A stretch of DNA of 64,000 nt from Terriglobia bacterium (lineage in GTDB: Bacteria > Acidobacteriota > Terriglobia > 2-12-FULL-54-10), in contig CAXVYR010000002.1 in the NCBI GenBank assembly GCA_963666975.2, positions 267,436 to 331,435 of the forward strand. Reading direction: 5' to 3'. The stretch's first letter is position 1. Each line of letters opens with the position of its first letter. Below are positions 13,965 through 21,160 of the stretch, in pieces. Under the pieces are notes generated by a model. It had not been told where the DNA came from. It searched no databases and saw nothing but the letters and a program-made list of their open reading frames with translations. The position numbers were made by a program, and so were the translations under genes.

Positions 13965-14795
13965 ATGCGGTATTGGGGATTAATATTGCTCCTCGGTGCG
14001 GGGCTGCTGATTGCGCTCACACTAGGCGTGCGGGATATCCGCCGGGCTCAATCCGAATTGGGGCAGCCGGTCGGCAGCGGCTCCGCAACGGACATCCCAA
14101 CCATACGGTTCGTGAAGAACCCCTCTCCTGTGCCGGAATTTACCTATGAAGACCTGGAAGGACGAAGCCAGGGCACGCGTGACTGGCTGGGCAAAGTGGT
14201 TCTGTTGAATTTCTGGGCCACATGGTGCCCGCCTTGCCGGGCGGAGATTCCCGACCTGATCCGGCTGCAGACCGAGTATGCGGACCGTTTGCTGATTGTC
14301 GGGCTCTCGACCGACGCTGAGGGAAAAGAAATAGTGCAGTCATTTGTGGAAGAGGCGGGGATCAACTACCGGGTAGGCATGTCCACACCGGAGGTGGAAG
14401 CAAAATTCGGGGGTGTTTTGGGCCTCCCGACAACTTTCTTGGTGGATACCAGGGGACGAGTCGTACAAAAGCATATCGGTTTTGCGAACCCGGAGCTTTA
14501 CGAAATGGAGATTCGCGCCTTGCTGGATCTCCCCGTCAATGCGAACGTGGAAATGTTTGAGGACGAGGGACAAGTCTTCCTCTCAAACGCCGCCAATGCA
14601 ACCGAGTTGCCTGGAGTGGACCTCTCCCAGCTTACTCCGGAACAACGGAAAGCCGCCCTCCGGCAGCTCAACGAGCAGACATGCACCTGCGGATGCAATT
14701 TGACGCTGGCGCAGTGCCGGATCAACGACACCACTTGCGTTGTGAGCACGGAGCTCGCCAATCAAGTGGTGGAGGAAATTATAGCCTCTCAGTAG
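13965..14795 (+). CDS. Membrane-anchored TlpA/ResA-like thiol:disulfide oxidoreductase with Cys-rich C-terminal extension
   Basis: SD GGGAGG. N-terminal TM helix. Thioredoxin motif 'FWATWCPPCRAEIP'. C-terminal 'CTCGCNLTLAQCRINDTTC'. Confidence 0.8.
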   Translation: MRYWGLILLLGAGLLIALTLGVRDIRRAQSELGQPVGSGSATDIPTIRFVKNPSPVPEFTYEDLEGRSQGTRDWLGKVVLLNFWATWCPPCRAEIPDLIRLQTEYADRLLIVGLSTDAEGKEIVQSFVEEAGINYRVGMSTPEVEAKFGGVLGLPTTFLVDTRGRVVQKHIGFANPELYEMEIRALLDLPVNANVEMFEDEGQVFLSNAANATELPGVDLSQLTPEQRKAALRQLNEQTCTCGCNLTLAQCRINDTTCVVSTELANQVVEEIIASQ

Positions 14796-15346: not shown

Positions 15347-15393
15347 CTTAGAACTATATAGCAGCGGTTCCAGACCATTACCTAAGGGGACTT

Positions 15394-16830
15394 ATGACGA
15401 ACAGGAAGATTGCGACGGGGGCGAAGCGGCGACAGAACCTCGTACTGGCAGCCATCCTAACATTGCTCGGAGTGGGTGCTGGATTTTTGCTATCCGGGGG
15501 AAATGATATTGAGGCGCGCTCTGCCTTGGGCCGCAAACCCACCGGATTTCCCCAGCTAGTCTCGGTAGAACCCTTGCCGATGATGGACGGGGAGATGTGC
15601 CAGTGGATGCCCGCCAGCGCATCCGGCAACCTTCGCGCGTCACTCTTCCAGACGGGCGCATCCGGTCGCGCCGCCTCGGCGGAAGACCCGAACCGCGAGG
15701 AGGTTCGGCGGCGGCCCCCCCTGCGAACCATCAAAGACCCCTATGCTTCGTTCAGCGCCATCGCGGTGGACCCCGTTCGCGATGAAGTGATCATGACCGA
15801 TGAAAGTCTCTTCCAGATTCTCGTCTATGACCGATTGACCAACACTCCTCCCACGGCCCAATTTTCCGAGCCGAAGCGGTCCATCGGCGGTTTAGATACG
15901 AAGGTGGATTATGTCTGCGGGCTCTACATCGATCCGGCAAGCGGCGACATCTACGCCATCAACAACGACACGGTGGACACGCTGGTCATCTTCAACCGCC
16001 AGGCCAAGGGCAACATTCCGCCGACGCGGGAACTCTACACCCCGCACGGCACCTACGGGATTGCGGTGGATGAGGGAGCCGAGGAGCTGTTTCTCACCAT
16101 TGAGCACGACAGCGCCGTGGTGGTCTTCAACAAGTGGGCGGAGAAGGATGCGGAGCCGCTGCGATCCTTGCAGGGAGAACGGACGCGTCTGGCCGACCCG
16201 CACGGCATCGCCCTGGACGCGGAGCGGAATGTGATGTACGTCGCCAACTTCGGCTCGTCCCAATCCCACGATCCCAACCTCGACAACAAGTCCCGGCCGA
16301 TGTACAGCCGGGGCGAAGGAAAAGCCAACTGGCCTCTGACGCGCAACAGCGTCATTCCGGGCAGCGGACGTTTCACCGATCCGTCCATCACCGTGTATGC
16401 GAAGGACGCGCGAGGAAACACGGCTCCCCTCCGTGTCATCCAGGGCCCGAAGGCGAGGCTGAACTGGCCCACAGGACTGGCCCTTGACCCGGTAACCCAT
16501 GAACTTTTTGTCACCAACGACATGAATGACGAGGTGCTGGTCTTCGACGGGGACGCCGAGGGAGACGTGGCGCCGAAACGCATTCTCGGCGGGCCGAAGA
16601 CGATGATCAAAAACCCCACCGGCGTCTGGGTGGACCGGGAAAATGAAGAGTTGTGGGTCGCCAGTTTCGGCAACTACACAGCGACCGTTTTTCCGTTGGG
16701 CGCATCCGGCGACACGGCCCCGCGACGGGTGATTCGCAGCGGCCCCCTGGGAAAACCCGCGCTCATGATCGGGAACCCGCACCCAGTGGCCTATGACAGC
16801 AAGCGCGAGCAGATTCTGGTCCCCAACTGA
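15394..16830 (+). CDS. Membrane-anchored beta-propeller repeat protein, N-terminal part (ends at in-frame TGA)
   Basis: SD AAGGGG. TM helix 'LVLAAILTLLGVGAGFLL'. Repeated ~42-aa blades of the form 'P.G.A.D...E..V.......VF...A.G..AP.R.I.G'. Confidence 0.7.
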   Translation: MTNRKIATGAKRRQNLVLAAILTLLGVGAGFLLSGGNDIEARSALGRKPTGFPQLVSVEPLPMMDGEMCQWMPASASGNLRASLFQTGASGRAASAEDPNREEVRRRPPLRTIKDPYASFSAIAVDPVRDEVIMTDESLFQILVYDRLTNTPPTAQFSEPKRSIGGLDTKVDYVCGLYIDPASGDIYAINNDTVDTLVIFNRQAKGNIPPTRELYTPHGTYGIAVDEGAEELFLTIEHDSAVVVFNKWAEKDAEPLRSLQGERTRLADPHGIALDAERNVMYVANFGSSQSHDPNLDNKSRPMYSRGEGKANWPLTRNSVIPGSGRFTDPSITVYAKDARGNTAPLRVIQGPKARLNWPTGLALDPVTHELFVTNDMNDEVLVFDGDAEGDVAPKRILGGPKTMIKNPTGVWVDRENEELWVASFGNYTATVFPLGASGDTAPRRVIRSGPLGKPALMIGNPHPVAYDSKREQILVPN

Positions 16831-17646
16831 GTGGCTCATCCGCAGATTGCGGTATTCGCCAGGACGGCGGATGGAAGCGACTCTCCCGTACGGAAAATCG
16901 AGGGCCAGAAAACCAAGCTGGGGCGCACCATGCACTCTATCATTTACGACCCGATCCATGATGAGATCAGCGTGCCGCAGGACTTCGCCCACGCCATTCT
17001 GACGTTCCGCGCGGATGCCAGCGGCGAGCAGCCTCCGATGCGGATTCTGCAAGGTCCCGACACTCGTTTGAATGGACCGGAACGGCACACGGTGGACCCG
17101 GTAAACAACGAGATTTATGTGCCTCAAGGCGACGAGATTCTGGTCTTTGACCGCGAAGCGGCGGGCAACGTGGCTCCGAAACGCATTCATAAGGGGCCGG
17201 ACACGAAATTAGGCGCGGGCGCTGTGGCCGTGGACCCGGTGCGCAACCTCCTGGTTGTTGTGGGAACGCATGAAACTGAAGGGCTGAAAATCCGCATCTA
17301 CCCGCGAACGGCGGAGGGCAACACCCCGCCGCTGCGGCAGATCGGAGGGCCGAACAGCATGATCACGAGGATGGGCGGCCCGTTCGCGCTGTACCCGCCC
17401 TCGGGCAAGATCGTTCTCACGATGCGTCCCCGGAAGGCCGGTGTTCTGGGCGGGGATGACAGTTTCACCGGCGTCTGGAACATTACAGACAACGGCGATG
17501 TTCCGCCCCAATGGACGATCGGGGGGCCGAAAGGCGCTCTAGTGATGCCGCGCGGCGTTGCGCTGGATGTGAAGAACAAGAGCATCATCGTGACCGACAA
17601 GCGGCTCAACGCGATCCTCACTTACTATTTCCCGGAAATTTTCTAG
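16831..17646 (+). CDS. Beta-propeller repeat protein, C-terminal part (same frame, begins at the GTG directly after the TGA)
   Basis: Same reading frame as 15394..16830. The blade repeat continues across the stop without a register change. Confidence 0.6.
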   Translation: MAHPQIAVFARTADGSDSPVRKIEGQKTKLGRTMHSIIYDPIHDEISVPQDFAHAILTFRADASGEQPPMRILQGPDTRLNGPERHTVDPVNNEIYVPQGDEILVFDREAAGNVAPKRIHKGPDTKLGAGAVAVDPVRNLLVVVGTHETEGLKIRIYPRTAEGNTPPLRQIGGPNSMITRMGGPFALYPPSGKIVLTMRPRKAGVLGGDDSFTGVWNITDNGDVPPQWTIGGPKGALVMPRGVALDVKNKSIIVTDKRLNAILTYYFPEIF

Positions 17647-17899: not shown

Positions 17900-20800
17900 C
17901 TAAAAAGAGAAGCGCAAGGCGAATTGAATCTGGCGTGATGTGGTCGCCGTCCTGGAAATCCTTCCTGCCGTACTGGTTCGGTTGCCGGACCGGCCCGAGA
18001 AAACGACAGCGGAAGGGCTTGTTAAATTGGGATGGTTGGGAAGATTGAACAGGTCGGCTCGGAATTGCAATCGCCGTTTGGAGTCGAGTAAAAATTCCCT
18101 CCGGAGCGATACGTCCATGTTGAACACGCTAGGGGAGATGAGCGTGTTGCGGCCCGCGTTGCCGAGGGTTCCCGGCGGAGGCGCCGAAAAAGCACAGGGA
18201 TCGAAATACAGCTCCGGGGTGCCCAGGGTTTGGCCTGCGCTAATGCGGCCGCAACCAGCCGAAACACCCTCCACCAGATTGTTGCTCGCGCCGCCGGCCA
18301 GATTCGGCCTGCTGGCCGCAAACAGGTAGCCTTCGGCGCGGGCTTTGGACTCGGCGGAGAAGGGGGTCCCTTTACGTAAGTTCATGATCCCGCCCAGCCG
18401 CCAGCCGCCCAAGAGCTTGGAAAGGGGGCCTGAATTCCACCAGCGCTGCCCGCTCCCGAAGGGACTATTATAGAAGTAGCTGAACACGAGGCGATGCCGA
18501 ATATCGAAGTCCGACAAGCCGCGGTCGAGCGTCCGCATCAGGGGATACTGGCCGGTGTTGGATTGCTGCCCGACGGAGGAATCATCCACCGATTTGCTGA
18601 ACGAATAGCTGGCCTGCAGGGATAGACCGGAGCTAAGCGACTTATTGGCGGAAACCTGCAGCGCGTTGTAAAAGGATTGCGCGTCCGTATTGATGATGGT
18701 GATCGAACCAAAGTTCGGATTGGTCGGTCCCGCGTTGGGCTGGCAGAGGTCTGAAGGATTGGGTGAACTGCAATCATCCGGGAAGAAGAGCGCCCCATCC
18801 TGCTGAACGACGGGAACCGGATACTGGTTCGCCTCGAAACGGCGCAACAGGTGGTTGCCTCGGGAACCGACGTAGGAAGCCTGCGTGCGCCAGCCGCCCG
18901 GCAGCTGCTGCTGCAGCGTTACGTGGTAACGGAACACCATCCCCGAGTTCATAGCCTGATGATCCATGACCTGAACCAGGAAGGGCACGTCGACGGCGCC
19001 TTCCAGCGCGTTGGGGAAAAATGCGGAGGTGTCCAGATTGGGGCTGACCGCGATGTTGTAAAACGGAGCCGAGCTTCTTCGCGAATTGGCCACGTATCCC
19101 AGAACGGGGTCGTAGTAGATGCCGACGCCGCTTCTCACCACTGTTTCCCGGCCCTCCCAGGGAGTCCACGTAAGACCCAGGCGGGGCGCGAAATTCAAAA
19201 GAGAAGAATTGCTCTCAAAGAAATCCCCGTACTCCACCTCCGTGCTCCGCACGACGTCCCGAAGAAACACGGTCTTGTTCAGCCGGTCGCTGATTTTGGT
19301 AACCATTTCATAGCGAAGACCCATGCTCACCTGAAGGCGAGGATGGAGCCGGTATTCATCTTGAGCGTAAAGGCCCACCAAAGTCTGCCGAAAGTCGCGC
19401 TGGTTGTCCGAGCCGGGCAATGCAACGGCCAGACCTGTTCCCACCGGTCCGGCCTGCAAAAACCCCTCCAGGCTGTTAAACGACCACACCGCACCCTTCT
19501 GCCAGTCGCTGAAGATGTCCCATCGGTAGCGATGCACGTCCACTCCAAACTTCAACGCATGAGGCCCTCGCTGCACAATGAGCTGCCCCCCGAACTGAAG
19601 GGATTTCGCGTTATCGGCCCGGGGGATATTCGACCTAGGGCCGAAGGCGCTTAGACCCGGCATCTGGATTACGCCGAACCTCGGAGCCTCGGGCAGGAAG
19701 AACAACGAAGGCGGGATTTCAATCAGGGAACGCGTGGCGGAAGAGTCAATCATTCGCGTATAACCAAAGCGGAACGCCGCCAGCGCCTGCAGATTGAGGA
19801 TGTGGGTTCCCACCACCGTGAGGTATTGCTGGCGGGTCTCTTTGACGGTCTGGAACAAGTGTGTGCCCTGCGACTCCTCGCCGGTGGCGTCGTCAAAGGT
19901 GTAGCGGGCGAAGAAGCTGTCCTTGTCCGAGATTTTTTGGTCCACGCGAAAGGTAAAAAAGTTTTCGTTCACCGGCAGAAATTGGGGAGCCACGTTGCGT
20001 CCTACGCCGCGTCCCAGCCCGATATCGTTCGGTACGGGAATCAGCTCCAGGTAGGGCTGCACGCTGGGCGCGATGGGGACGGTGGGCGTGCCGGAGGAGT
20101 CCGGAAATCCGCTCCGAGCCTCTCCGTCCGGGAAGAAGCTCACATTGGTCTCGGTCAAACGGTCGCGCAGTCCCTCATAGCTGAACAAGAAAAAGGCCCG
20201 GTCCTTTTGTAACGGGCCCGTCAGCGTAAATCCGAACTGGTTCCGCTTAAAGGGAGGCGGCTCAGAATCGCGGTCAAAAAAGTTGCGTGCATCCAGCTTG
20301 CTGTTGCGGAAAAACTCAAACAGGGTTCCATGAAATTCGCCGGTTCCGGAGCGGGTGATCGAATTCAAAACCCCTCCGCTGCTGCGGCCATACTCGGCTC
20401 CATAACCGGCGCTGAGCACCTGCACCTGGAAAACCGTATCGGACCCCAGTTGCACCCCGGCGGCGCTTCGGGGAACTTGATTTCGCGCATTCATGATGCT
20501 GGTTCCGTCCAGCAGGAAGTGGTTGGAGGTGGCGCGGCTGCCGGAAACCGACAAGCTGCCGCCGCCTACTCCCCTGGAGGCGGAACTGGAGGAGGAATCG
20601 CTGACTCCAGCCTGCAAGGTGGCCAGCTGGCTGTAGCTGCGGCCGTTCAGCGGAAGGCCCAGCAGCTGGCTTTCATTGATCGTATTTTCTGACGCTTCAG
20701 AGGAAGACTCTTCCGCCGTGCTCACAGGGGCCGCCTCTTTTTGTTCTTCTTCTGCCTGCTCTTGTTCCGCAGCTTGCCGGGCTTCGGATTCCAGGGCAAA

Positions 20801-21160
20801 CAGAAGAGCAAGCAATTGACCTGCGCTCAAGTCTAAACTTTCCCGAGCCTGAGGCACAAACCCGGCACGCGAAGCTTGAACGGAATAAGCGCCGGGAGAA
20901 AGCAGTTGAATTTCAAAGTTTCCCTGGGTATTGCTTTGAGCTGACAAGACCTGCCCGGTAGCTAGGTTTCTGGCGACGACCGTCGTCCCGGAAAGGGGCT
21001 CACCCTTTGCGCCTGTGGCCGTCCCGTTCAGCGTTGTCAACCGGCTAGGCTGGGCCACACGGGCCCGCTGGGACACCCCTGCTGACGGAAAGAAAAACGC
21101 CAGCATGAGCACAATAGCCGGGACAAGCCACCCGATTCTGATCACGCGGCGATCTTGCAT
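17900..21160 (-). CDS. TonB-dependent outer-membrane receptor with N-terminal CarboxypepD_reg domain
   Basis: Signal peptide. Ig-like 'GTATGAKGEPLSGTTVVARN...GAYSVQA'. Acidic linker. Plug-like 'NESQLLGLPLNGRSYSQLATLQAGV'. Long beta-rich barrel with terminal '...QFALRFSF'. Confidence 0.85.
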   Translation of the reverse strand: MQDRRVIRIGWLVPAIVLMLAFFFPSAGVSQRARVAQPSRLTTLNGTATGAKGEPLSGTTVVARNLATGQVLSAQSNTQGNFEIQLLSPGAYSVQASRAGFVPQARESLDLSAGQLLALLFALESEARQAAEQEQAEEEQKEAAPVSTAEESSSEASENTINESQLLGLPLNGRSYSQLATLQAGVSDSSSSSASRGVGGGSLSVSGSRATSNHFLLDGTSIMNARNQVPRSAAGVQLGSDTVFQVQVLSAGYGAEYGRSSGGVLNSITRSGTGEFHGTLFEFFRNSKLDARNFFDRDSEPPPFKRNQFGFTLTGPLQKDRAFFLFSYEGLRDRLTETNVSFFPDGEARSGFPDSSGTPTVPIAPSVQPYLELIPVPNDIGLGRGVGRNVAPQFLPVNENFFTFRVDQKISDKDSFFARYTFDDATGEESQGTHLFQTVKETRQQYLTVVGTHILNLQALAAFRFGYTRMIDSSATRSLIEIPPSLFFLPEAPRFGVIQMPGLSAFGPRSNIPRADNAKSLQFGGQLIVQRGPHALKFGVDVHRYRWDIFSDWQKGAVWSFNSLEGFLQAGPVGTGLAVALPGSDNQRDFRQTLVGLYAQDEYRLHPRLQVSMGLRYEMVTKISDRLNKTVFLRDVVRSTEVEYGDFFESNSSLLNFAPRLGLTWTPWEGRETVVRSGVGIYYDPVLGYVANSRRSSAPFYNIAVSPNLDTSAFFPNALEGAVDVPFLVQVMDHQAMNSGMVFRYHVTLQQQLPGGWRTQASYVGSRGNHLLRRFEANQYPVPVVQQDGALFFPDDCSSPNPSDLCQPNAGPTNPNFGSITIINTDAQSFYNALQVSANKSLSSGLSLQASYSFSKSVDDSSVGQQSNTGQYPLMRTLDRGLSDFDIRHRLVFSYFYNSPFGSGQRWWNSGPLSKLLGGWRLGGIMNLRKGTPFSAESKARAEGYLFAASRPNLAGGASNNLVEGVSAGCGRISAGQTLGTPELYFDPCAFSAPPPGTLGNAGRNTLISPSVFNMDVSLRREFLLDSKRRLQFRADLFNLPNHPNLTSPSAVVFSGRSGNRTSTAGRISRTATTSRQIQFALRFSF

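Follow-up and report, generated by a model that had tools for sequence, protein, structure and literature searches.

The locus described here lies in a stretch of 64,000 nucleotides (hereafter, the window, with coordinates counted from its first letter) from a Terriglobia bacterium of the Acidobacteriota (assembly GCA_963666975.2, contig CAXVYR010000002.1, positions 267,436 to 331,435 of the forward strand). Two open reading frames (ORFs) on the forward strand of the window, 15394..16830 (478 amino acids, aa) and 16831..17646 (271 aa), share one frame and have the TGA at 16828-16830 as their sole separator, in the context ...CTG GTC CCC AAC TGA GTG GCT CAT CCG... (16816-16842). Translation of 15394..17646 through this codon gives 750 residues without any other lesion. 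The frame starts at the ATG at 15394, 4 nt downstream of a Shine-Dalgarno-like AAGGGG (15384..15389, forward strand, found by direct reading of the sequence), and ends at a true stop, the TAG at 17644-17646. A preliminary description of this stretch had already noted the lone TGA, the GTG immediately adjacent to it and the intact frames on both sides, all of which the sequence confirms.

Our results indicate that the UGA at 16828-16830 is very probably a codon for selenocysteine (Sec), which would be residue 479 in the motif ILVPN-U-VAHPQIA, and that 15394..17646 is a single selenoprotein gene; the two ORFs would be one gene because the TGA that separates them would be a Sec codon. The grounds for this reading are, at the level of sequence, the correspondence between Sec and cysteine in homologues, the conservation of the TGA and of an open frame beyond it, a covarying hairpin of the selenocysteine insertion sequence (SECIS) type that is specific to the TGA forms, and a complete Sec decoding machinery. 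They strongly support the first of the options that the preliminary description had listed, namely Sec incorporation or read-through, and the following sections weigh them against the others.

The TGA codon and its counterparts in homologues

Two classes of homologues emerged when 5.8 billion proteins were searched, and we aligned all 121 sequences with MAFFT. The full-length class has 725-770 aa, is 45-56% identical to the read-through product and covers nearly all of it (93-100%). The short class has ~465-480 aa, is 61-99% identical and covers only the first 64%. At the column of the TGA, 106 of the 107 full-length homologues have Cys, in the motif ILVPN-C-VAHPQIA, and one has Trp, while the nearest homologues (12/12, 61-99% identity) terminate at ...LVPN. 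Cysteine at the position of an in-frame TGA is what typically marks a Sec/Cys pair. The alignment of orthologues, which the preliminary description had recommended, thus places Cys at this position in single proteins of 725-770 aa, and the near-invariance of that Cys leaves beside the point the earlier comparison with sister blades of the same protein, where the position is D, G or M. The homologue with Trp (P0113, from a JGI metagenome) reads NWVAHPQ, and its TGG is one substitution away from TGA.

The TGA is also widely conserved at the DNA level. In the organism's own genome (4.23 Mb), tblastn found ten paralogues, each reading ...VPN-stop-VAHPQIA. Some of them are clustered: two tandem Sec-propeller genes lie ~300 bp apart at C3:768183-772937, and two further ones, at C4:2151747 and C4:2163880, lie within 12 kb. 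A six-frame search of genomes of the same taxonomic family gave matches in 12 of 14, with 2-32 copies per genome, and among the more than 150 matches listed nearly all had exactly one TGA and two had none. Elsewhere in the class, 27 genomes belonging to other families gave no match at an E value of 1e-50 or better. A scan of species-representative genomes found 79 loci, mostly in metagenome-assembled genomes (MAGs) of uncultured Acidobacteriota (labelled Terriglobia, 'Solibacteraceae', Bryobacteraceae, Ca. Sulfopaludibacter, RIFCSPLOWO2 and groundwater bins), with a few from Binatia, Verrucomicrobiia and Luteitalea. In species genomes, the critical codon was TGA in 104 of 105 distinct contexts and TGC in the other. 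Scanning metagenomes with Cys forms as seeds yielded a further 57 contexts with TGA and 20 with TGC. In total, we obtained 154 distinct TGA-bearing contexts, from Acidobacteriota MAGs and soil metagenomes, down to ~50% protein identity. Such a recurrence of one TGA at one column greatly exceeds what chance would produce.

These observations bear on the simplest alternative, a recent nonsense mutation creating a pseudogene, or an assembly or sequencing error at 16828. A lone in-frame stop in an otherwise intact ORF does resemble a fresh lesion or an error when a single sequence is considered. Yet, the same TGA occurs in all 154 contexts, which come from many independent assemblies, and the frame that follows it is intact in every one of the 99 copies whose two ends lie on the locus, where 258-291 codons stay open beyond the TGA. 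A contig from ENA that is 85% identical to the window (locus L037) shows the same split into 478 and 271 residues. Sequencing error is untenable because the TGA is conserved across independent assemblies, and we regard the probability of a lesion or an artefact as negligible.

We also rejected a global reassignment of TGA. The true stops of the TGA-bearing genes of the family are TGA in 47 cases, TAG in 41 and TAA in 15; since TGA is a real stop in 47 of these 103 genes, the codon has not been reassigned, and the genome has no second tRNA with a UCA anticodon.

A split gene is another way to account for the two ORFs: translation would terminate at the UGA and restart at the GTG, producing propeller pieces of 478 and 271 residues. 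This fits the presence of a GTG directly after the TGA in the window and in 137 of the 154 copies, and gene callers do annotate two ORFs in public records. On the other hand, in the remaining 17 of the 154 copies the next codon is GTC or GTA, neither of which is a start, and several of these have no in-frame start within 25 codons. Among 161 copies, none has a Shine-Dalgarno-like motif upstream of the reinitiation site. In the Cys forms, which are not split, the Cys is likewise followed by this Val codon. The split would, moreover, sever a blade between two of its strands in the structural model described below, and it would leave the covarying hairpin of the TGA forms unaccounted for. Reinitiation is highly improbable as the conserved mechanism. 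Together, the conservation of the TGA, its correspondence with Cys, the non-start codons and the lack of Shine-Dalgarno-like motifs contradict the three other options raised in the preliminary description (nonsense mutation, reinitiation and sequencing error).

The exchange between Sec and Cys seems to have been recurrent. A tree of 97 Sec and 104 Cys forms, built with FastTree, requires at least 14 Sec/Cys changes. For comparisons at the DNA level, we used 154 distinct Sec (TGA) contexts and 18 Cys (TGC) contexts. With at least 14 inferred switches, these contexts are a natural experiment on the exchange of Sec and Cys and on the birth and decay of SECIS elements.

RNA hairpins after the UGA and the decoding machinery

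The nucleotides following the TGA are conserved far above what the protein needs (consensus TGA GTG GCN CAY CCG CAG ATY GCG NNN TTC GCC AGG NTG GCG RAN). The consensus structure computed with RNAalifold has two adjacent hairpins after the TGA. In the window, these correspond to a mini-hairpin at 16840-16852 (forward strand; CCGC at 16840-16843, loop AGAUU, GCGG at 16849-16852), which occupies part of the stretch that separates the UGA from the putative SECIS, and to the putative SECIS hairpin itself at 16853-16873 (forward strand; UAUUCGCC at 16853-16860, loop AGGAC at 16861-16865, GGCGGAUG at 16866-16873). In 103 distinct copies, 93.9% of the cells of this two-hairpin structure are paired. 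There are 57 cells with double changes, against 18.4 in column shuffles, and none of 500 shuffles reached as high a number. When the 3' partners are shifted by 1-3 columns, pairing drops to 34-56%. For example, pair 33-51, which joins two codon third positions, is found as AU (27), GC (18), UA (15) and CG (13), pair 36-48 is CG in 100 copies and UA in 3 with zero mismatches, and in one copy a G-C pair became C-G by means of two amino-acid changes. The mini-hairpin has 93-94% of its cells paired in Sec forms, against 78% in Cys forms, and a compensatory change from C-G to A-U in 2 of the 103 copies (3 of 154 in the larger set). The apical loop of the second hairpin starts 30 nt after the UGA and has the form A-GGN-U, with a closing A-U pair in most copies.

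The preliminary description had proposed a different SECIS, a 7-bp stem between 16837..16843 and 16867..16873. Its 7-mers (CAUCCGC and GCGGAUG) are indeed complementary and its 3' arm is real, but the 5' partner of that arm is 16853-16860. As a conserved SECIS, the 7-bp stem was rejected: only 77.8% of its cells are paired in the 103 copies, no covariation is seen, and of the seven pairs three are broken in 35-66% of the copies.

The model of bacterial SECIS (bSECIS) elements given in PMC13188914 constrains the stem, the loop, the folding energy and the distance from the UGA to the loop, which ranges from 16 to 37 nt. The window hairpin agrees with all four constraints: it has an 8-bp stem, a loop of 5 nt (AGGAC) whose second base is G, a spacing of 30 nt and, when folded alone, an energy of -9.3 kcal/mol. 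A scan of 16600-17100 with Rfam gave only noise from snoRNA families.

Some features of the RNA nevertheless weigh against the proposed reading. The 30-nt spacing is among the longer values of that range, ~10 nt over that of the organism's own selD. In the window copy, the A-U pair that closes the loop is replaced by an A-C mismatch. Finally, the minimum free energy fold of 75 nt of the window copy, taken as a single sequence, adopts the rival stem 16837-16843/16867-16873. Over the same 37 nt of the window copy, the two-hairpin fold has -15.1 kcal/mol, against -8.7 for the rival stem (-13.6 with its best interior). As for the spacing, the mini-hairpin, with its 13 nt, may, if it is folded, cut the effective distance between the UGA and the SECIS to ~20 nt, as in selD.

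The comparison of Sec with Cys forms indicates that the hairpin goes with the TGA. For the Arg of the loop, AGG is used by 141 of the 154 Sec forms and by 1 of the 18 Cys forms, 11 of which have CGC. The preceding Ala codon is GCC in 147/154 Sec forms vs 8/18 Cys forms, and the following one is GCG in 149/154 vs 8/18. At least eight of the nine stem pairs can form in 143 of the 154 Sec forms, against 3 of the 18 Cys forms. By this comparison, the SECIS hairpin appears tied to the TGA and not to the protein sequence, and the choices of AGG, GCC and GCG, which are otherwise unexplained, would reflect selection on the RNA in Sec forms only. The Cys forms that kept the hairpin are three metagenomic copies with TGC (L196:1344, L197:1915 and L201:2761). 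Over the 51 nt that follow the codon, they are very similar to copies with TGA, L195 and L173 among them, and in two of the three the AGG is already AGA. They look like recent conversions from Sec to Cys in which the SECIS is decaying.

The genome has the functions required to decode the UGA as Sec. The preliminary description had suggested a search for selA, selB, selC and selD, and all four are present, each above its curated cut-off: selA at 563.5 bits (cut-off 268), selB at 371.8 (242), selD at 349.5 (125) and the tRNA-Sec gene, selC, at 72.8. The tRNA-Sec has the anticodon UCA and is the only reader of UGA among 48 tRNAs. The selD gene, which lies outside the window (C4:1360322-1361257, locus L039), itself has an in-frame TGA, in the context MATKTNLTATVKAAG-U-ASKL (GUASK motif), followed by the SECIS GUCCAAA-GGU-UUUGGAC, a hairpin that starts 14 nt after the UGA and whose loop lies ~20 nt after it. 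The two genes would use the same SelB, and the apex of the selD element (A-GGU-U, with a stem of 7 bp) matches in type the A-GGN-U of the propeller genes. They differ in that selD has the shorter distance between UGA and loop, has no mini-hairpin in between, encodes a cytoplasmic protein and is present in single copy.

In the mechanism that we propose, SelB carrying Sec-tRNA(Sec) would dock on the coding-region hairpin at 16853-16873. Docked SelB, with the loop 30 nt after the UGA and the mini-hairpin at 16840-16852 occupying the spacer, would lead the ribosome to insert Sec instead of terminating. This resembles the prototype of the genes decoded by SelB and a bSECIS, fdhF of E. coli. Shared traits are a UGA aligned with Cys, a hairpin inside the ORF just downstream, a small loop bearing GG, a spacing within 16-37 nt, and selA, selB, selC and selD. 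The window gene differs from the fdhF type by its spacing at the long end (30 nt), the conserved second mini-hairpin in the spacer and an unrelated fold and family.

A last alternative to Sec decoding is a read-through of the UGA independent of selenium, in which a near-cognate or suppressor tRNA would add Trp, Cys or Arg and the hairpin would only stimulate the process. The single homologue with Trp at the Sec/Cys position is in line with it, and sequence alone does not identify the inserted residue. Against it, the tRNA-Sec is the sole tRNA with a UCA anticodon, the organism keeps the full selABCD set, including a selD that itself depends on Sec decoding, the residue is Cys in 106 of the 107 homologues with a sense codon, and the apex of the hairpin agrees with both the SECIS of the organism's selD and the bSECIS consensus. 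We thus find such read-through very unlikely, and retain Sec insertion as the explanation of the UGA.

Architecture, neighborhood and possible function of the propeller

We modelled the read-through product with AlphaFold2 (AF2), using an alignment of 60 sequences. The model has a mean predicted local distance difference test (pLDDT) of 89.4 and a predicted template modelling score of 0.85. It shows a hydrophobic helix at residues 11-33 (15424..15492, forward strand), a low-confidence linker at 34-110 (pLDDT below 50 at residues 34-56, 67-79 and 85-95) and twelve four-stranded blades at 111-750 (15724..17643, forward strand). The helix is read as a membrane or signal anchor, and the NHL-like blades, from AF2, Foldseek and Pfam, as a tandem (double) beta-propeller. 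Residue 479 is in a loop of blade 7 of 12, between its second strand (473-478) and its third (484-489). The blade repeat is thus continuous through the stop, as had been proposed from the sequence. The product would be anchored in the membrane by its N-terminus, and a flexible linker that contains Cys69 would lead to a 12-blade double beta-propeller carrying Sec479 on the loop of blade 7.

Cys69 (codon at 15598..15600, forward strand, in GEMCQWMPA) is the sole other broadly conserved Cys, being present in 86 of the 97 Sec forms and in 100 of the 104 Cys forms and almost without exception in one of our alignments. The strongest association with the Sec state is that of residue 175 (codon 15916-15918), which is Cys in 92 of the 97 Sec forms (95%) and in 17% of the Cys forms, and Ser in 82 of the 104 Cys forms. 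We considered Cys175 as a partner of Sec and dropped it, since among 12 phylogenetically independent contrasts two or three move with Sec and about ten are unchanged (p ~0.5). The association may be phylogenetic.

Pfam NHL (PF01436) matches the N-terminal half with 25.1 bits (cut-off 20), with no single stretch significant alone, and this gathering score together with the four-stranded blades corresponds to an NHL-repeat beta-propeller. Matches to Pfam Lactonase and SGL are weak and near threshold, and the broad superfold is shared with YncE and the 7-bladed lactonase-type propellers. NCBIfam release 20 has no specific model for the family. Its models for YncE (NF052280, 18.5 bits vs a cut-off of 400) and 6-phosphogluconolactonase (NF008258, 21.5 bits vs 370) were rejected, and the label 'DNA-binding YncE' given by JGI to Cys homologues is unsupported. 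A profile search of the PDB gave weak matches to NHL blades (TRIM2/3, Brat, NHLRC2, SOQ1), LRP6 and PON1, the NHL proteins being at 1e-3 to 1e-6. The matches to NHLRC2 and the plant protein SOQ1, at such E values, extend over one or two blades. NHLRC2 and SOQ1 each join a thioredoxin (Trx)-like domain to an NHL propeller. In the window, the corresponding modules are encoded by separate neighboring genes, a TlpA-like one and the propeller, a pairing found in only three paralogue loci, and the propeller has 12 blades instead of 6. To our knowledge, no Sec or catalytic Cys has been reported for the propellers of NHLRC2 or SOQ1.

This TlpA-like gene (13965..14795, forward strand) encodes a membrane-anchored thiol:disulfide oxidoreductase of the TlpA/ResA type, with a WCPPC motif. 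It matches the NCBIfam models ResA, TlpA and DsbE at 1e-18 to 1e-23, all of them under their curated cut-offs. The protein has a C-terminal extension of ~90 residues with a Cys-rich ending, CTCGCNLTLAQCRINDTTC, outside every NCBIfam model. On the other side of the propeller gene, 3' of it and on the opposite strand, lies a gene for a TonB-dependent receptor (17900..21160, reverse strand). In the 85%-identical locus L037, a Trx-like gene is found upstream and TonB-dependent receptors nearby. An ORF of 432 aa runs antisense to the propeller gene (15892-17190, reverse strand); similar antisense ORFs are found in 41 paralogue loci, and it looks like a shadow ORF of high-GC DNA and not a gene.

Across ~105 paralogue loci, the recurrent neighbors are TonB-dependent receptors (24), amidohydrolases (21 and 7), DASS transporters (9), small dihaem cytochromes c (9), UbiD-type decarboxylases (7) and an unannotated protein of ~300 aa with no Pfam match (10). 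The dihaem protein (cluster c6), of ~155 aa and with two CxxCH motifs (CGGCH and CTVCH), adjoins the propeller gene in nine loci, for example at -1901..-1433 from the TGA in L089. This neighbor hints at electron transfer, and the set as a whole suggests that imported organic substrates are processed in the periplasm in diversified ways. The TlpA-like protein is a candidate reductant for the paralogue in the window. In the functional part of our proposal, Sec479 would be the catalytic residue of an extracytoplasmic redox enzyme, and in the window paralogue the adjacent TlpA-like reductase could recycle it via a selenylsulfide, possibly with Cys69. We tentatively suggest that the propellers are redox enzymes of the periplasm, a family whose substrates would be imported organic compounds, while holding this assignment to be rather doubtful.

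Several results count against such a function. The TlpA-like neighbor occurs in only 3 of the ~105 paralogue loci, which are those of the window's orthologues. None of the neighbors is constant across these loci, so that no conserved operon partner common to the paralogues could be retained. The association of Cys175 with the Sec forms is lost under phylogenetic control, and a Foldseek search of the PDB returned only generic WD40/YWTD double propellers (Pwp2, Aip1, LRP6), with a template modelling score of ~0.3. The functional part of our explanation is weak.

A probable propeller family among selenoproteins

The decoding mechanism appears to be the ordinary bacterial one, and what seems to be new is the protein, which would represent a highly expanded family of beta-propeller selenoproteins. 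Table 1 of PMC13188914, a review from 2026, lists 119 prokaryotic selenoprotein families and has no beta-propeller, NHL, YncE or lactonase entry among them. These words are also absent from the main texts of PMC13188914, deep-Sep and BSepDB. We found no description of a propeller selenoprotein family in the literature, in a comparison that did not extend to the survey of selenoproteins in groundwater MAGs cited in PMC13188914.

A broader proposal can be drawn from these elements. The family would be undescribed and the first selenoprotein family with a beta-propeller fold, extracytoplasmic and membrane-tethered, and would have expanded in Acidobacteriota of soil and groundwater until each genome had 10-32 paralogues with a Sec codon. 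In the periplasm, Sec would act on imported organic substrates by a new chemistry, for which small cytochromes c or TlpA-type reductases would be the link. Taken in its entirety, we think that this proposal is possible and yet unlikely.

One implication concerns annotation. Public records split the window gene and its relatives, including the 85%-identical locus L037, into two ORFs labelled 'hypothetical' or 'YncE'. A corrected annotation would turn them into single Sec-containing proteins of ~750 residues.

There would also be implications for the biology of these bacteria. According to PMC13188914, the selenoprotein-rich clades are mainly anaerobic (Thermodesulfobacteriota, Synergistota, Clostridia), and the largest known bacterial selenoproteomes have 57-63 genes. 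If our proposal is correct, these propellers would dominate among the selenoprotein families of a phylum that is major in soil, and these Acidobacteriota would come close to the largest known bacterial selenoproteomes, even though they are not among the anaerobic clades named as selenoprotein-rich. A family with 10-32 Sec paralogues per genome would alter the view of where selenium is put to use, since it points to a heavy demand for the element in soil Acidobacteriota, for a protein that is exported and whose fold would be new among selenoproteins.

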